Assembly: GCA_041661275.1 (NCBI GenBank)
Contig: JBAZUU010000003.1
Span: 25,586 to 89,585 of the forward strand
Length of the DNA stretch: 64,000 bases
Direction: 5' to 3'
From: Parcubacteria group bacterium
GTDB taxonomy: Bacteria; Patescibacteriota; Minisyncoccia; Moranbacterales; UBA2206
The position numbers were made by a program, and so were the translations under genes. This document shows, piece by piece, positions 22,404 through 56,752 of the stretch. Position 1 is the first letter of the stretch. The number at the start of each line of letters is the position of its first letter. The notes under the pieces were generated by a model. It made no database searches. It was given only the letters and a program-made list of their open reading frames with translations, and had not been told where the DNA came from.

Positions 22404-22475
22404 GCCGAAGTAGCTCAATGGTAGAGCAGCGCTCTTGTAAAGCGAAGGTTGGGGGTTCAAGTCCTCTCTTCGGCT
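22404..22475 (+). tRNA. tRNA-Thr (anticodon TGT)
   Basis: Manual fold. Acceptor gccgaag/cttcggc. D-arm gctc-aatggta-gagc. Anticodon loop cttgtaa. T-arm ggggg-ttcaagt-cctct. No encoded CCA. Confidence 0.7.
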
Positions 22476-22493
22476 CGTTAAAATAAAAATAAA

Positions 22494-22892
22494 ATGCACA
22501 TAAAAACAAAAGGATATATTGCAGAAATGTATGTAACGGCGCGGCTAATTGAAGACGGATGGCGAGTGTTGCATCCAATCGGAGAAAATAATCGGTATGA
22601 TCTGGTTGCTGAACGCGACGGAAAATTTATCAGAATCCAGGTTAAATATGTGACACCTAAAAAAGGTGTTTTGGATGTAAATTGCAGAAGTAGTAATAAT
22701 TGGTCAGTTTTGCATTATTCAGCTAAGGAAATTGATGTTATAGCAGCTTATAATGCGCAAACCAGAGATATCTATTACATACCAGTTTCAAAAATAAATA
22801 GAAGTTTGATAAAATTAAGAATATTTCCAACAAAAAACAACCAGAAGATAAATATTAATTCAGCAGAAAAATTTTTAAAATTAGAATATTAA
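22494..22892 (+). CDS. YraN-like (UPF0102) PD-(D/E)xK endonuclease family protein
   Basis: GYIAEMYVTARLIEDGWRVLHPIGENNRYDLVAERDGKFIRIQVKY matches the YraN pattern (G..aE..a...L...G..il.....GEIDLIa.dg...FVEVKtR). The gene is embedded in the tRNA cluster. Confidence 0.5.
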   Translation: MHIKTKGYIAEMYVTARLIEDGWRVLHPIGENNRYDLVAERDGKFIRIQVKYVTPKKGVLDVNCRSSNNWSVLHYSAKEIDVIAAYNAQTRDIYYIPVSKINRSLIKLRIFPTKNNQKININSAEKFLKLEY

Positions 22893-22897
22893 TATAT

Positions 22898-22980
22898 GGG
22901 TGTGTCGCATAGTGGCAATTGCTCCTGACTGTAAATCAGGCGTCCTACGGACTTCGCAGGTTCGAGTCCTGCCGCACCCA
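22898..22980 (+). tRNA. tRNA-Tyr (anticodon GTA, long variable arm)
   Basis: Acceptor gggtgtg/cgcaccc. Anticodon stem-loop cctga-ctgtaaa-tcagg. Variable arm cgtcctacggacttcg. T-arm gcagg-ttcgagt-cctgc. Confidence 0.8.
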
Positions 22981-23013
22981 CATAAAATAAATAGTTTGCC
23001 GTTGTTTCGATGT

Positions 23014-23088
23014 CGGGATTGCCGAGATAGCTCAGTTGGTAGTCGCCTCATCGGCGACCTGCCGAAGAGGCAGGAGCACGTCCTTGCC
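23014..23088 (+). pseudogene. Disrupted tRNA-Gly(GCC)-like 5' half: intact D-arm, 31-nt insertion, sequence through anticodon GCC, then truncated (no T-arm or 3' acceptor)
   Basis: gccgagaTAGCTCAGTTGGTAG[tcgcctcatcggcgacctgccgaagaggcag]GAGCACGtCCTTGCCt matches tRNA-Gly(GCC) up to position 36, then diverges. No TTCRA T-loop before the next tRNA. Confidence 0.35.
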
Positions 23089-23102
23089 TGATTTCGTTTA
23101 AT

Positions 23103-23174
23103 GCCCAGGTAGTTCAGTGGCAGAACGCTTCCATGGTAAGGAAGAGGTCGAGAGTCCGATTCTCTCCCTGGGCT
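23103..23174 (+). tRNA. tRNA-Thr (anticodon GGT)
   Basis: Acceptor gcccagg/cctgggc. D-arm gttc-agtggca-gaac. Anticodon stem-loop cttcc-atggtaa-ggaag. T-arm gagag-tccgatt-ctctc. Confidence 0.75.
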
Positions 23175-23273
23175 CAAGTTTAATAAAATTAATTGTATCC
23201 CTCATCCGTCTCCGACTATCCGTCGGAGCCACCTTCTCCCAGAGGGAGAAGGGGATTTGAAGGGACTGAATAT

Positions 23274-23429
23274 ATGGCGCGAGAAAATTTGGTGAAAATG
23301 CGATGCTCCGATTGTAAAAGTATCAATCATTTCACAACCAGAAACAAGAAAAAAATCAAAGAGAAATTGGAACTAAAAAAGTTCTGCAAAAAATGCCGGA
23401 AAAATACCGTGCACAAAGAGATGAAATAA
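23274..23429 (+). CDS. rpmG: 50S ribosomal protein L33
   Basis: MARENLVKMRCSDCKSINHFTTRNKKKIKEKLELKKFCKKCRKNTVHKEMK is the L33 zinc-ribbon pattern. ORF track 23193 has extra upstream residues. Confidence 0.8.
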   Translation: MARENLVKMRCSDCKSINHFTTRNKKKIKEKLELKKFCKKCRKNTVHKEMK

Positions 23430-23473
23430 GTGAGTGTCCGCCTTCGCTCTTTTCGAGCTTCGGCGGGACGAAG

Positions 23474-23547
23474 GCGGGATTCGTACAGTGGTAGTACATC
23501 GGTCTCCAAAACCGACGACGTAGGTTCGATTCCTACATCCCGTGCCA
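23474..23547 (+). tRNA. tRNA-Trp (anticodon CCA, CCA end encoded)
   Basis: Acceptor gcgggat/atcccgt. D-arm gtac-agtggtag-tac. Anticodon stem-loop tcggt-ctccaaa-accga. T-arm gtagg-ttcgatt-cctac. Discriminator g, then cca. Confidence 0.8.
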
Positions 23548-52791: not shown

Positions 52792-53542
52792 AAAAGGGGT
52801 CAAGTACCTTTTCTATCAAACAGTAATATGAGCAATATGATATACTCAACACATGGCTAGAATTCCAAGAAATCCAATAGGTGATGTTGCCTATCATGTG
52901 CTTAATCGTGCCAATGGGCGAGAGCAGATTTTTAATAAAGAAAAAGATTACGAAGCTTTCATAAAAATCATTCAAGAAGCCAAGGAAAAATATCCAGTGG
53001 ATATTTTTACCCTTTGCCTCATGTCCAATCATTGGCATTTTTCTTTGAGTGCCAAAAAAGGAGAAAATATTTCCAATTTCATGCGCTGGGTAACTCACAC
53101 CCATACTCAACGTTATCATTCCCATTACAAAACTATCGGTTACGGCCATCTCTATCAGGGTAGATATAAATCTTTCCCTATTGAAAAAGATAACCATTTT
53201 CTCCAAGTTTGCCGCTATATTGAAAGAAATCCGATCAGGGCTGGATTAGTAAGAAAAGCTCAGAATTGGAAATGGTCAAGTCTTTGGATAAGAAAAAATG
53301 GAACCAAAGAACAAAAAGCATTATTATCAGACTGGCCGGTAGAAATGCCGATTGGATATCTGGAATGGGTTAATGTTTTAGATAAAAACGAAGAAGACAA
53401 GCTAAACAAAATACGATATGCTCTCAAAAGAGGGTGCCCCTATGGCGAAGATAGCTGGGTTAAGAAAACAGCAAAAAAACTAAACTTAATTTCCACATTA
53501 ATTCCCAGAGGCAGACCGAAAAAAGGTACCTGACCCCTTTTT
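52792..53542. mobile_element. REP-RAYT-REP unit: IS200-like HUH Y1 transposase gene flanked by inverted REP-like hairpins
   Basis: Left aaaaggggtcaagtaccttttc (52792-52813). Right gaaaaaaggtacctgaccccttttt (53518-53542) is its imperfect reverse complement. Each is itself a small hairpin. Confidence 0.55.
52853..53533 (+). CDS. REP-associated tyrosine transposase (RAYT) / IS200-like Y1 HUH transposase
   Basis: HuH motif LMSNHWH and catalytic Tyr region YQGRYKS. 226 aa with a C-terminal extension typical of RAYTs. Confidence 0.65.
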   Translation: MARIPRNPIGDVAYHVLNRANGREQIFNKEKDYEAFIKIIQEAKEKYPVDIFTLCLMSNHWHFSLSAKKGENISNFMRWVTHTHTQRYHSHYKTIGYGHLYQGRYKSFPIEKDNHFLQVCRYIERNPIRAGLVRKAQNWKWSSLWIRKNGTKEQKALLSDWPVEMPIGYLEWVNVLDKNEEDKLNKIRYALKRGCPYGEDSWVKKTAKKLNLISTLIPRGRPKKGT

Positions 53543-53720: not shown

Positions 53721-53858
53721 TAATTTTGCTGATTAATAAGTTACAAATAGGCCTGTTTATTAAACTTTATTTATTTTTTCGACCATCGAAATTAAATTAA
53801 TAACGCACTAGTCCTATAATTATTGTTAAATTCAATAAATATTATTACAATCATCAAT

Positions 53859-55181
53859 ATGCCAAATGAAATATACGCAGGTCACATCTATCCAAACGAA
53901 CTTCTTCGTCCTCCTAAAGATAATATTCCTTCATTAGAACACGTATATTTTGTTGTAGGTACAGTTATGAGTGACATTGGTAAAGGATGGCTTTCAGGTT
54001 CGATAGCTAGTACTTTAGATAATCCCCTGATAATAAAAATAGATCCGATGCTAAATCAAAGTTTTCCTGAAAACGTAGGTATCCCTATGGACAATACACA
54101 CGTAACAGATGACTTTAAAACATATCAGCGTTTAGGATTAGAGACAAAAGTTGATAACAATATCGTAATGGGACAGATATGGAGAGAATATCTAAGTCAT
54201 TCCCAAATTCCTATGCAGATAACCGAAGGATCAATTAAAAAACAGACTTATGCGGATGTGGCGGATTATTTTTCAGATAAACTACTCAATATGATTAAAT
54301 CATCTCATGCTAAAAATGTTGTAATTGAAATTGGAGGTACGCCAGTAGATTCAGAACAAGATGTACTTCCATCCACTTTCCGTTTAATGGGGATCAAGAC
54401 GAATGTTGTACCTGAGCTCATTCTTCTCTCATATTTTGAAACGAGAGAGGATAATGCTAACGATGGGAAAAAAGGTTTGAAAACTCAAATTATTCGACAA
54501 GGAATACGCGATGCAACCACAAAATATGCAGGATTACCATTAAAATCTGTATTTGTACGAAGAAGGCGCGTTTCCGAGTCAATTGTGTCTGTATCATTGC
54601 AGGATGAATTATTGAGGGTGGCATATGAGACACAAATATCTCCACAAAAATTAACACTTCTTGAAAATTATCAAGATGTTACAGAATTAATGAAATATAT
54701 ATCGGAATCTGGTATTTTTAAAGAAATTGATAAACCACTGATGGTTAGTGCATGTATCTTGGGAATACCATGTAGGTTTGATGGAGCATCAAAACCAGTG
54801 GGAGATCGAAAAATGAATGTTATTTTATCAAATGGATCTGCTTTAATTTTATGTCCTGAAATATTAGCAGGTTTACCCACACCAAGAGGACCGTATAATA
54901 TAACTTCAGGTAGTGGAGAAGATGTTTTAAATGGAATTGCAAAAGTAGTTGATAACGATGGAAATGACGTGACGGATCTATTTATAAAAGGTGCAGTAGC
55001 AACATTAAAAGCACTTATGAATAGGGGTATTAAAAAAGCATATTTACGTGAAGGTAGTCCATCATGTGGAATAAATAGAATTACTACAAAATTGGATGGA
55101 AAAGTATCTGCTATGGGTGTAACGACTGCTTTACTACAACGCTGGGGTATAGAGTGCATCTCATCTGATGCAGTTGTTTAG
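53859..55181 (+). CDS. Fusion protein: CTP synthase N-terminal (amidoligase)-like domain plus DUF523 (TudS-like, Cys-rich) domain
   Basis: N-terminus VYFVVGTVMSDIGKGWLSGSI, IIKIDPMLN and VVIEIGGTPVDSEQD parallel CTP synthase motifs. C-terminus ACILGIPCRFDGASKP...ILCPEILAGLPTPRGP matches DUF523. AT-rich codon usage. Confidence 0.45.
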   Translation: MPNEIYAGHIYPNELLRPPKDNIPSLEHVYFVVGTVMSDIGKGWLSGSIASTLDNPLIIKIDPMLNQSFPENVGIPMDNTHVTDDFKTYQRLGLETKVDNNIVMGQIWREYLSHSQIPMQITEGSIKKQTYADVADYFSDKLLNMIKSSHAKNVVIEIGGTPVDSEQDVLPSTFRLMGIKTNVVPELILLSYFETREDNANDGKKGLKTQIIRQGIRDATTKYAGLPLKSVFVRRRRVSESIVSVSLQDELLRVAYETQISPQKLTLLENYQDVTELMKYISESGIFKEIDKPLMVSACILGIPCRFDGASKPVGDRKMNVILSNGSALILCPEILAGLPTPRGPYNITSGSGEDVLNGIAKVVDNDGNDVTDLFIKGAVATLKALMNRGIKKAYLREGSPSCGINRITTKLDGKVSAMGVTTALLQRWGIECISSDAVV

Positions 55182-55434
55182 GACATATATGGATAATTCA
55201 GTAATACTTTGTAGCGCATGTTTGGGATGGAAAACATGGTGTTTTTGCAGTAGCTACTAGCGAGAAAATAACTAGCTCGGTCACTTTCTCGTTAGAACCT
55301 ACCGTATGGCAAGAGCCAAGCTATCCAGAGCCAGGAGAAATCGTTCTTCTTGGTAATCTTCGTAAGAAGCGGGCTTGATCAAAAATGAGCCACATGTGTT
55401 TGACTAACAGAGCTTGTTTTTCGTATAATACACT

Positions 55435-55551
55435 TATGCAGGAAATCAGGAATAAGAAGATAAAAATACATACAATATTCGAGTCGCTCGAGAATCAAAA
55501 CGAAAGCGTATATTTTTAGTTTTTGAAGGCCGTCCATTGGGGCGGTTTTTT
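55435..55551 (+). ncRNA. Candidate small RNA (copy 2 of repeated element) with promoter TTGACT-N18-TATAAT and intrinsic terminator
   Basis: ttgact 55399-55404 and tataat 55423-55428. Terminator gccgtcc-attg-gggcgg plus ttttttt. Its G-U replaces the A-U of copy 1, keeping the stem. Confidence 0.45.
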
Positions 55552-55573
55552 TGTCGGAAAAGATTGAGGATTG

Positions 55574-55860
55574 ACCCCGCACTAACTTTTGTTTGTTATG
55601 CATTACGTTTATATTATACAGAATGAATTAGCCGAATTATATTATGGTTGTACCGGTAATCTTAAGAAAAGATTTTTTGAGCATAACAACAATAAATCCT
55701 TTTCTACCAAAAGTCATAAGTGGAAACTGATCTATTACGAAGCATATACGGCCGAGGAAGACGCATGGAATAGAGAAAAACAGCTAAAGCAATATGGCCA
55801 AGCCCTGGGTCAGTTGAAAAGGAGACTTAAAAAATCTTTGAACAAAAGTTAGTGCGGGGT
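55574..55860. repeat. Perfect 20-bp inverted repeats (accccgcactaacttttgtt / aacaaaagttagtgcggggt) bracketing the GIY-YIG gene
   Basis: 55574-55593 and 55841-55860 are exact reverse complements. The right copy contains the stop codon. Confidence 0.6.
55598..55852 (+). CDS. GIY-YIG nuclease family protein (UPF0213/YhbQ-like)
   Basis: YVYIIQNE...YYGCTGNLKKRFFEHN is the GIY-YIG motif with conserved R and E. Confidence 0.65.
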   Translation: MHYVYIIQNELAELYYGCTGNLKKRFFEHNNNKSFSTKSHKWKLIYYEAYTAEEDAWNREKQLKQYGQALGQLKRRLKKSLNKS

Positions 55861-55927
55861 TGACAAACGGCCTTTTGCGTAGTATTATATCTAGTCAACT
55901 AAAACCGTTTGCTTTATAGAAAATATA

Positions 55928-56752
55928 ATGGAAATTTTTGAAAATAAAACAATACAGACTAAGGAGATGCTGGATTTTCATCTGGACATTAAAAAACTAA
56001 GGGAAATTCCAGTCGAAATTGATAGTTGGGCGTATAAGCAGGTAGGCAAGAAAAATGACGGGTCGTTTAAGGATAATTATCAGAATCTGGAAGTCAGGGA
56101 ATGCGGAGAAAGCCTGGTTGATATAAGCGATTTTAATTTATCAAATAAAGATTATTATTTTCAGAAGTTTTCTGGAGAAAAAGAAATTTTGGCCAAAAAA
56201 CTAGTTACCGAAAAAGTTTTTCTCAGAAAAAGTCATGCTGAACGATTAGCCAGGGCGGATAAATATTTTCGAGAAAGAGGACTGTATATTAACATTGTTT
56301 CGGGCTGGCGGCATCCAGAGTTTCAAAAAATAATCAAAGAAGAATATGCGAAAAAATTTGGACAAGAAAAAGCGGATAGATTATTTGCTTCTGTTGACAG
56401 AAGAGTTCCAGCTCCGCATTCCACAGGCGCTTCCTTTGATGCTGAGTTACGAGATTTATCCTCAAGTAAAAAGATAAAAATGAACGTTTGTTTTAATAAC
56501 GAAGTGATTCATGGCCTGTATTGGGCAGAAGAACTATTAAAAGAAGGGAAACTCGATAATATTAGTGCGGAGGCTGTGAGAAATCGAAGAATTCTTTATC
56601 ATGGCTTGTGTTCAAAAGGCGTGGTTTTTGAAAAAAAAGAAGATCTCTTTGTTGCCCATCCGGGGGAATACTGGCATTATGGCGATGGCGATACATTAAG
56701 CTCCTTTTTAAAGAAAAAAAAGTTTATAAAATACGGCATAGTTTATCCGTGA
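55928..56752 (+). CDS. M15 family D-Ala-D-Ala dipeptidase (VanX/DdpX-like)
   Basis: SGWR...PHSTGASFD...EYWHYGDGD follows the VanX zinc-binding pattern (SxHxxGxAxD, WEWWH). Confidence 0.6.
   Translation: MEIFENKTIQTKEMLDFHLDIKKLREIPVEIDSWAYKQVGKKNDGSFKDNYQNLEVRECGESLVDISDFNLSNKDYYFQKFSGEKEILAKKLVTEKVFLRKSHAERLARADKYFRERGLYINIVSGWRHPEFQKIIKEEYAKKFGQEKADRLFASVDRRVPAPHSTGASFDAELRDLSSSKKIKMNVCFNNEVIHGLYWAEELLKEGKLDNISAEAVRNRRILYHGLCSKGVVFEKKEDLFVAHPGEYWHYGDGDTLSSFLKKKKFIKYGIVYP

Follow-up and report, generated by a model that had tools for sequence, protein, structure and literature searches.

Why should the gene for a small GIY-YIG nuclease lie between two perfectly complementary repeats, one of which contains its own stop codon? 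An earlier note on this locus offered two answers: a messenger RNA clamped by a long-range stem between its 5' and 3' ends, or a tiny mobile unit that carries the nuclease between terminal inverted repeats. We analysed the locus within the 64,000-nucleotide (64-kb) stretch of DNA that contains it, hereafter the window, and alongside homologous loci. A repeat finder confirmed the perfect inverted repeat, in which ACCCCGCACTAACTTTTGTT at 55574-55593 faces its complement at 55841-55860 (20 nt, 100% complementary, 247 nt between), with the stop codon in the right arm. A scan of the 64-kb window allowing up to three mismatches found only these two copies of the arm; the shuffle expectation has a mean of 0.04, and none of 100 shuffles reached two. 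The motif TTGAC, which had been remarked on both outer sides, is present at 55571-55575 and 55860-55864. Parsed without overlap, the arms are 19 bp long (55575-55593 and 55841-55859) and are flanked by a 4-bp direct repeat, TTGA, which contributes the twentieth (A-T) arm pair. The window element is 55575-55859, approximately 285-290 bp, and its 19-20-nt arms are the element ends. The element and its immediate surroundings comprise the following features.

55528-55552, + strand: intrinsic-terminator-like hairpin and T-run, host context (from sequence and fold)
55571-55574, + strand: left TTGA direct repeat, resembling a target-site duplication (from sequence)
55574-55593, + strand: left arm (19-bp core 55575-55593), with the outer motif CCCCGCAC that is conserved family-wide
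55598-55852, + strand: gene for an 84-aa single-domain GIY-YIG nuclease (PF01541)
55668-55681, + strand: inner stem, 5' strand, inside the coding sequence (repeat finder, RNAalifold)
55826-55839, + strand: inner stem, 3' strand
55841-55860, + strand: right arm (19-bp core 55841-55859), encoding the last residues N-K-S and the stop
55860-55863, + strand: right TTGA direct repeat, also the first 4 bases of the downstream -35 hexamer
55860-55888, + strand: promoter-like TTGACA-17-TATTAT, host context (11 of 12 consensus positions)

The arms of the window element follow the pattern CCCCGCACTAAC...GTTAGTGCGGGG, and the flanks joined with a single TTGA, as if the element were removed, would read ...GAAAAGATTGAGGATTGACAAACGGCC.... 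The start codon is the ATG at 55598, in keeping with the homologues, which begin MHYVY; the alternative TTG at 55589 would lengthen the protein to 87 aa. The TAG stop at 55850-55852 falls inside the right arm. Neither a Shine-Dalgarno sequence nor a promoter belonging to the GIY-YIG gene was recognised. We considered a promoter formed from the left TTGA and the arm (TTGACC) and rejected it, its best -10 placing the transcription start inside the ORF. The element is intergenic, between an intrinsic terminator and the promoter of the next gene. The terminator, which a consensus scan did not list, lies 18 nt upstream of the left TTGA and 21 nt before the left arm. On the other side, the right TTGA opens the promoter-like site of the downstream gene (55928-56752), and the duplication leaves its -35 intact. 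Rfam gave no match in 55150-55950 or nearby, and no intron model matches.

The enclosed ORF is, as the earlier note had it, an 84-aa GIY-YIG protein (55598-55852), which matches the Pfam GIY-YIG family PF01541 at E=9e-13 and has no other domain. In the family alignment Y5, Y15, G17, R25, H29 and E60 are invariant, and the catalytic Tyr, Tyr, Arg and Glu are intact. By profile, its nearest solved relatives are the UPF0213/YhbQ-type structures 1zg2 (E=3e-11) and 1ywl (1e-7), followed by SLX1 (3e-3), a structure-specific nuclease whose substrate is branched DNA. The UPF0213 label that had been given to the gene is approximate: the profile match to 1zg2 is strong, whereas the single-sequence match to UPF0213 structures is weak (E=0.045). 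No NCBIfam model matches the protein (TIGR01453, at E=0.007, is below cut-off), nor does it match PHROG. On sequence similarity, it is assigned to a clade related to UPF0213 (YhbQ/BH0048), not as a demonstrated member, and 84-aa genes of this kind should not be annotated as housekeeping UPF0213 proteins. We know of no description of an inverted-repeat bracket for UPF0213 genes. To our knowledge, GIY-YIG enzymes are hydrolytic nucleases, among which strand-transfer activity is not known. A homologue search returned at least 119 close relatives, with lengths of 84 aa or very close to it and mostly from Parcubacteria and Moranbacteria; among 1.8 billion representatives, the family profile recovers 3,955 clusters (at 50% identity) with E<=1e-10. 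Across the window subfamily dN/dS is 0.03-0.14. Between the window copy and L001 it is 0.03 with a dS of 1.24, so that synonymous sites are saturated, and yet the arms of the two are identical; the protein and the arms are therefore both strongly constrained.

To place the bracket in a wider setting we collected 165 loci with relatives of the gene from genomes and metagenomes, covering CPR and several other phyla, and scored the best inverted repeat between the zone just 5' of the start and the zone around the stop, with a threshold of 13 and with 503 equal-size windows shifted by 700-1200 nt as controls. A bracketing repeat was found in 137 of the 165 homologous loci (83%) against 0.4% of the shifted controls; relatives of the gene do carry similar flanking repeats, as the earlier note had wondered. 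The element mostly spans approximately 260-350 bp. Its outer arm ends are conserved across phyla, reading (A)YCCNGCAC or CCCCCACAC on the left with the complement on the right; the outer 8 nt follow YCCNNCAC, and the inner parts of the arms vary by lineage. Within the window subfamily (18 alignable members), 96.7% of arm cells pair, and compensatory changes on both sides occur in 8 of the 20 arm pairs. The covariation score of the arms is 0.339 compared with 0.119 in shuffles, none of 500 of which reaches it, and pairing falls to 34-50% when the partner is shifted by 1-3 columns. The pairing of the arms is maintained by compensatory changes.

The surroundings of these genes are not conserved. 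Synteny is absent among the homologues nearest in sequence: the top three, at 92, 85 and 80% identity, have wholly different gene neighbourhoods. One protein (P0004) is encoded twice in a single sample, on contigs of equal coverage (L004 and L005); the two loci are identical at 291 of 291 positions from the first to the last arm base and 31% identical beyond, so that the limits of the mobile unit coincide with the tips of the arms. Of the 84 non-redundant copies that lie outside RNA genes, 27 carry a perfect 4-bp direct repeat right next to the arms; the figure for controls, in which left and right junctions were paired across loci, is 3.3% (p=1e-19). The commonest of these repeats are TTGA (8), TAAA (4) and TGTG (3), and the TTGA pair of the window also flanks independent copies in L001, L003, L005, L009, L088, L060 and L077. 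Some flanking repeats are longer (5-9 nt), the 9-nt case being that of L074, where the element adjoins the 5' end of a tRNA gene. Two thirds of the copies outside RNA genes have no perfect 4-bp repeat, and those inside rRNA and RNase P RNA genes are not flanked by a duplication; the mechanism may therefore not be uniform, and the copies in RNA genes may have arrived by homing or have lost the duplication signature.

Copies with the same arms and no gene also exist. One of these, 116 bp long (L088 1350-1463), is flanked by TGAA on a contig that also carries a gene-bearing copy flanked by TTGA; minimal hairpins in L119 and L047 are flanked by TTTA and TAAA, respectively, and others are found in L012, L097, L064, L071 and L152. 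The 64-kb window contains no gene-less copy, and its gene-bearing copy is single. Upstream of the orthologues of the window's downstream gene in three relatives (L168-L173, 78-67% identity), a GIY-YIG element is absent. The search for further copies or empty sites proposed in the earlier note thus succeeded in its first part, with copies both gene-bearing and gene-less; an exact empty site for the window locus was not found, the intergenic DNA of the relatives being too diverged to align. That note had also described the outcome that would count against it, namely relatives with the gene and no repeats, and no copies elsewhere; the relatives proved to have the repeats and other copies proved to exist. 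The combined pattern is the autonomous/MITE pattern of a transposable-element family.

At least 49 of the 165 loci are inside 16S or 23S rRNA genes or RNase P RNA genes, at hairpin tips, and all 49 of these copies are co-oriented with the host RNA. At the tip of 23S helix 25 the arrangement is AGTGGGAG, element, TGACYGCG; in E. coli 23S rRNA these flanks surround the 13-nt hairpin 540-552, as checked against positions 532-560. At least two further insertion sites occur in 23S rRNA besides helix 25, those in 16S rRNA are near positions 65 and 1440 (numbered on the Desulfobacula 16S gene of L069), and some rRNA operons carry two elements. In RNase P RNA the element replaces P3, immediately before GAGGAAAGUCC. 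One RNase P RNA gene (L152 2127-2338) holds two tandem gene-less hairpin elements with the same arms (CCCCCCACCAATTTTG...), one at the P3 position and the other just past GAGGAAAGUCC. Outside RNA genes, 61 of 72 copies point the same way as the gene upstream of them and 50 of 68 the same way as the gene downstream, a bias that could stem from replication-strand or gene-strand bias and not from a need for transcription.

In five further TTGA-flanked copies, all independent, the element likewise borders on a TTGAC(A/T) hexamer that is followed after 16-17 nt by a hexamer resembling a -10 box. Judging from these junctions, insertions of the lineage of the window copy therefore seem to target -35 boxes, which the duplication then restores. 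The three TGTG-flanked copies (L010 3263-3271, L011 1037-1045 and L089 990-998) all abut TGTG(G/T)ATAA, which is the reverse complement of the DnaA-box-like TTAT(C/A)CACA. This motif hints that protein-binding sites or regions of DNA opening are a second kind of preferred target.

Fold prediction, a check that the earlier note had proposed, places the arm stem (20-23 bp) in both the minimum-energy and centroid structures, in RNA (z-score about -3.4) and in DNA. Mismatches in the arms lean towards G.T (G.U in RNA) on the sense strand, 40 against 20 for A.C (p=0.013). An inner stem of 13 bp (55668-55681 with 55826-55839) is kept by RNAalifold with two covarying pairs. We rejected it as a family-wide feature, since the enrichment of same-locus over cross-locus pairing is confined to the window-like subfamily. 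From the presence of the arm stem in the folds, the G.U excess, the sense-only orientation in RNA genes and the use of intervening-sequence sites, we infer that the arm helix has a role at the RNA level. The 5'-3' stem of the earlier note thus probably holds, with covariation in its favour as well; on its own it cannot explain the duplications and the gene-less copies. Two of the commonest flanking repeats, TTGA and TGTG, are self-complementary on the sense strand, and on that strand alone, once G.U wobbles are allowed; this adds 4 bp to the RNA helix (RNAalifold columns 3-6 paired with columns 300-303). The extension could be coincidence or selection among insertion sites.

We consider it probable, at roughly 0.7, that the window copy is a member of a tiny (approximately 260-350 bp) selfish family in which the GIY-YIG gene lies in the loop of its own hairpin. 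The mobile unit with terminal inverted repeats, proposed before any relative had been looked at, is borne out by the bracket at 83% of loci, the unrelated contexts, the identity limited by the arm tips, the 4-bp duplications and the ORF-less copies. Among systems described so far, the nearest is Ssn/SRM. Ssn proteins are single-domain GIY-YIG nucleases that bind hairpin repeats (NTS/SRM) in ssDNA only (Chenal et al. 2025, Nat Commun, PMC11893778). They cleave a few nucleotides upstream of the hairpin and depend on both the sequence and the structure of the stem; the loop is dispensable, inserts in it are tolerated and the stem may be split over two strands (PMC11893778). The same authors compare NTS-ssnA-NTS to an insertion sequence and speculate that its origin was IS-like (PMC11893778). 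In both systems the GIY-YIG protein is small and consists of one domain (84 aa here against 94 aa in N. meningitidis), and the gene is tied to hairpin inverted repeats whose 5' half is rich in C and whose 3' half is rich in G (CCCGC...GCGGG). Dispersed gene-less hairpins, a feature of Ssn genomes, have a counterpart here in the gene-less copies of related contigs (L088, L012, L097, L047, L119 and L152), where they lie close to the gene. They differ in layout: an ssn gene has a separate hairpin of 20-50 nt on each side, whereas here there is one hairpin and the gene is its 247-nt loop. PMC11893778 carries no report of 4-bp target duplications, identical arm-delimited copies, the gene-in-loop layout or residence in rRNA and RNase P RNA genes, and neither Patescibacteria nor rRNA is mentioned in it. 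A regular-expression search of the whole window for the SRM motif HGTCWY..YYVSBRH..WNVSBRG..RNCYNB gave 0 matches, a plasmid tblastn for a link to SsnA gave 3 weak matches only, and no Ssn protein by name, from Neisseria or elsewhere, came up in homologue searches, one of which started from the Methylomicrobium protein.

By analogy with Ssn, a mechanism can be sketched for the selfish family. When the DNA becomes single-stranded, the arms would snap back as a split Ssn-type hairpin with the gene in its loop; the encoded nuclease would recognise the conserved base of the stem and nick just outside it, and host repair or replication would then finish copying or insertion. In RNA, the arm helix of approximately 20-23 bp would close off the insertion so that the host RNA still folds, and the ORF-containing loop could be freed, for example by RNase III as with 23S intervening sequences. 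The helix would also set free the mRNA of a gene with neither a recognisable promoter nor a recognisable Shine-Dalgarno sequence, whose expression would come from upstream read-through. A fuller reading that joins all of these steps is one we offer tentatively, with more doubt than confidence: the element would be the smallest known autonomous bacterial mobile DNA (approximately 285 bp), its nuclease would recognise its own ssDNA hairpin and insert it with a 4-bp duplication at exposed or structured DNA, the arms would render it harmless as an RNase III-type RNA helix, and the dispersed Ssn-type repeats of other bacteria would be MITE-like remnants of elements like this. Were it true, essential structural RNAs of CPR bacteria would tolerate insertions by means of a self-closing RNA helix, and the targets would include the 5' ends of tRNAs and the -35 boxes of promoters, besides hairpin tips in the strongly transcribed genes for rRNA and RNase P RNA.

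Several other known systems share some of these properties. Bacterial 23S intervening sequences, found at helix 25 and helix 45, are cut out by RNase III with no religation of the transcript, and some contain ORFs, which belong to a different family (23S_rRNA_IVP). Relatives of the window element resemble them in residing at helix 25 and other variable hairpin tips in sense orientation, with ends that pair into a long, covarying stem of 20-23 bp. They differ in that the window copy is intergenic, outside RNA genes, and that the same element type also occurs at P3 of RNase P RNA, at a tRNA 5' end and at -35 boxes and has gene-less derivatives. Insertion sequences with terminal inverted repeats, and their MITEs, likewise combine such ends with autonomous and gene-less copies and with a short target-site duplication, the counterpart of which here is the perfect 4-bp repeat at 27 of 84 copies. 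The element differs in encoding no transposase of the DDE, serine, tyrosine or HUH class, its sole protein being an 84-aa GIY-YIG domain, and in its length of approximately 285 bp, which even the smallest insertion sequences exceed more than twofold (IS200 is approximately 700 bp). With IS200/IS605 and REP/RAYT systems the family shares a probable dependence on ssDNA hairpins and an orientation bias, but those systems use Y1 enzymes, each of their ends has its own subterminal hairpin, and the target is not duplicated. Homing endonucleases of the I-TevI type join the catalytic domain to a DNA-binding domain and are usually encoded within a group I intron or as free-standing phage genes; the 84-aa protein has no added DNA-binding domain and no intron around it. 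The insertions that hold GIY-YIG ORFs in CPR rRNA genes have been reported not to be introns of group I or group II (PMC11270868); inverted repeats go unmentioned in that study. Our literature search turned up neither GIY-YIG insertions in RNase P RNA of bacteria nor bacterial GIY-YIG elements with target-site duplications. The architecture and behaviour of the family appear not to have been described previously, and the window copy is an ordinary member of it.

How well do other explanations account for the same observations? One is that the repeats act in RNA only, as the closing helix of an intervening sequence (an RNase III substrate) that frees or stabilises the mRNA of the nuclease while the host RNA stays functional, and that the gene spreads by ordinary homing on empty double-stranded sites with a protein that ignores the arms. 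In its favour are 49 of 49 rRNA and RNase P RNA copies in sense orientation, a sense-strand G.U bias (40 against 20), covariation in the arm stem and the inner stem, and insertions at helix 25 and related sites, which are classical intervening-sequence positions (PMC11270868). Homing, however, needs homologous flanks and leaves unaccounted for the insertions at unrelated intergenic sites with 4-bp duplications, as well as the ORF-less copies with the same arms. The 84-aa catalytic domain also has no counterpart of the DNA-binding domain of known GIY-YIG homing enzymes, and the strict conservation of the outer 8 arm nucleotides across phyla points to sequence-specific recognition, not to a generic helix. 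We therefore regard this combination of RNA helix and homing as unlikely. An immobile, vertically inherited housekeeping gene, whose mRNA is clamped by the 5'-3' stem for stability or translational control, would likewise explain the stem in the minimum-energy and centroid folds (z about -3.4) and the strong purifying selection. It is highly improbable given that synteny is absent among homologues, that identical copies with sharp boundaries stand at two loci (L004/L005), that the gene is absent beside the orthologous neighbour gene in relatives, and that target-site-like duplications and gene-less copies are found.

Another enzyme might instead move the arms as REP- or MITE-type ends with the GIY-YIG gene as a passenger, and a candidate is at hand, a Y1_Tnp ORF being present in the window (52853-53533) and Y1 transposases being established to work on hairpin repeats. 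This has very little to recommend it once the family is considered, for a Y1 homologue occurs in the flanks of only 2 of approximately 165 GIY-YIG loci, against arms at 83% of loci across phyla, and IS200/IS605-type elements produce no target duplication; we rejected the Y1 transposase as mobiliser on this lack of association. That the complementarity arose by chance, or that the right arm is just a terminator, has nothing in its favour beyond the A/T-rich composition. The shuffle expectation of 0.04 and a bracket with covariation in 137 loci make it next to incredible.

The selfish-family reading would bear on several fields. Ssn-type nucleases would gain a natural history, as the engine of a selfish hairpin element whose autonomous and gene-less forms can both be seen, as can its insertion signature. 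It is also a candidate explanation for the unexplained non-intron insertions in CPR rRNA genes, one that extends to RNase P RNA. Cultured hosts with 23S-borne copies (Methylotuvimicrobium sp. KM1, Methylomicrobium sp. wino1 and Lagierella massiliensis) provide testable systems, and since a nuclease and the stem that it presumably recognises come together in every element, the family supplies hundreds of candidate enzyme/site pairs for ssDNA-cutting tools.

Some loci show more complex arrangements. The 23S rRNA genes of two cultured methanotrophs, both with complete genomes, carry head-to-tail arrays: a gene-bearing unit flanked by two gene-less units in Methylotuvimicrobium sp. KM1 (L064 2849-3368), and a gene-bearing unit beside which one gene-less unit was found in Methylomicrobium sp. 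wino1 (L071 2880-3300). The junctions in these arrays (right arm, 4 nt, left arm) form local hairpins that resemble the repeats described around ssn genes. A second, divergent GIY-YIG gene of 82 aa lies 1 kb from the first in L005 (2827-3075, - strand), beside a tRNA gene, and several other loci hold two family members within a few kb. By eye, the copy at approximately 2985-3275 of L074 sits at the extreme 5' end of a tRNA gene with anticodon GCA; the insertion duplicates 7-10 nt of the acceptor stem (GGGCCCGTAG), and so the tRNA gene stays intact.

Elsewhere in the window, 2 kb upstream of the element, the + strand at 52853-53533 carries an ORF of 226 aa whose product has an IS200-like Y1 transposase domain (PF01797, E=6e-20); an 83-aa Y1-related fragment adjoins the orthologous M15-like gene in L170. 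The next ORF, of 452 aa (53823-55181, + strand), joins a CTP-synthase N-terminal-like region (PF06418, residues 43-306) to a 2-thiouracil desulfurase domain (PF04463, residues 307-448), a fusion that is unusual. Further downstream, a near-consensus promoter, TTGACT-18-TATAAT (55400-55429, + strand), is followed by approximately 100 nt with no convincing ORF and then by the terminator at 55528-55552. This arrangement suggests that 55400-55552 may be a small transcript; the segment has no Rfam match, and its fold is no better than those of shuffles (z -1.15). The only Rfam matches in the window come from a cluster of four tRNA genes at 22404-23544 on the + strand.
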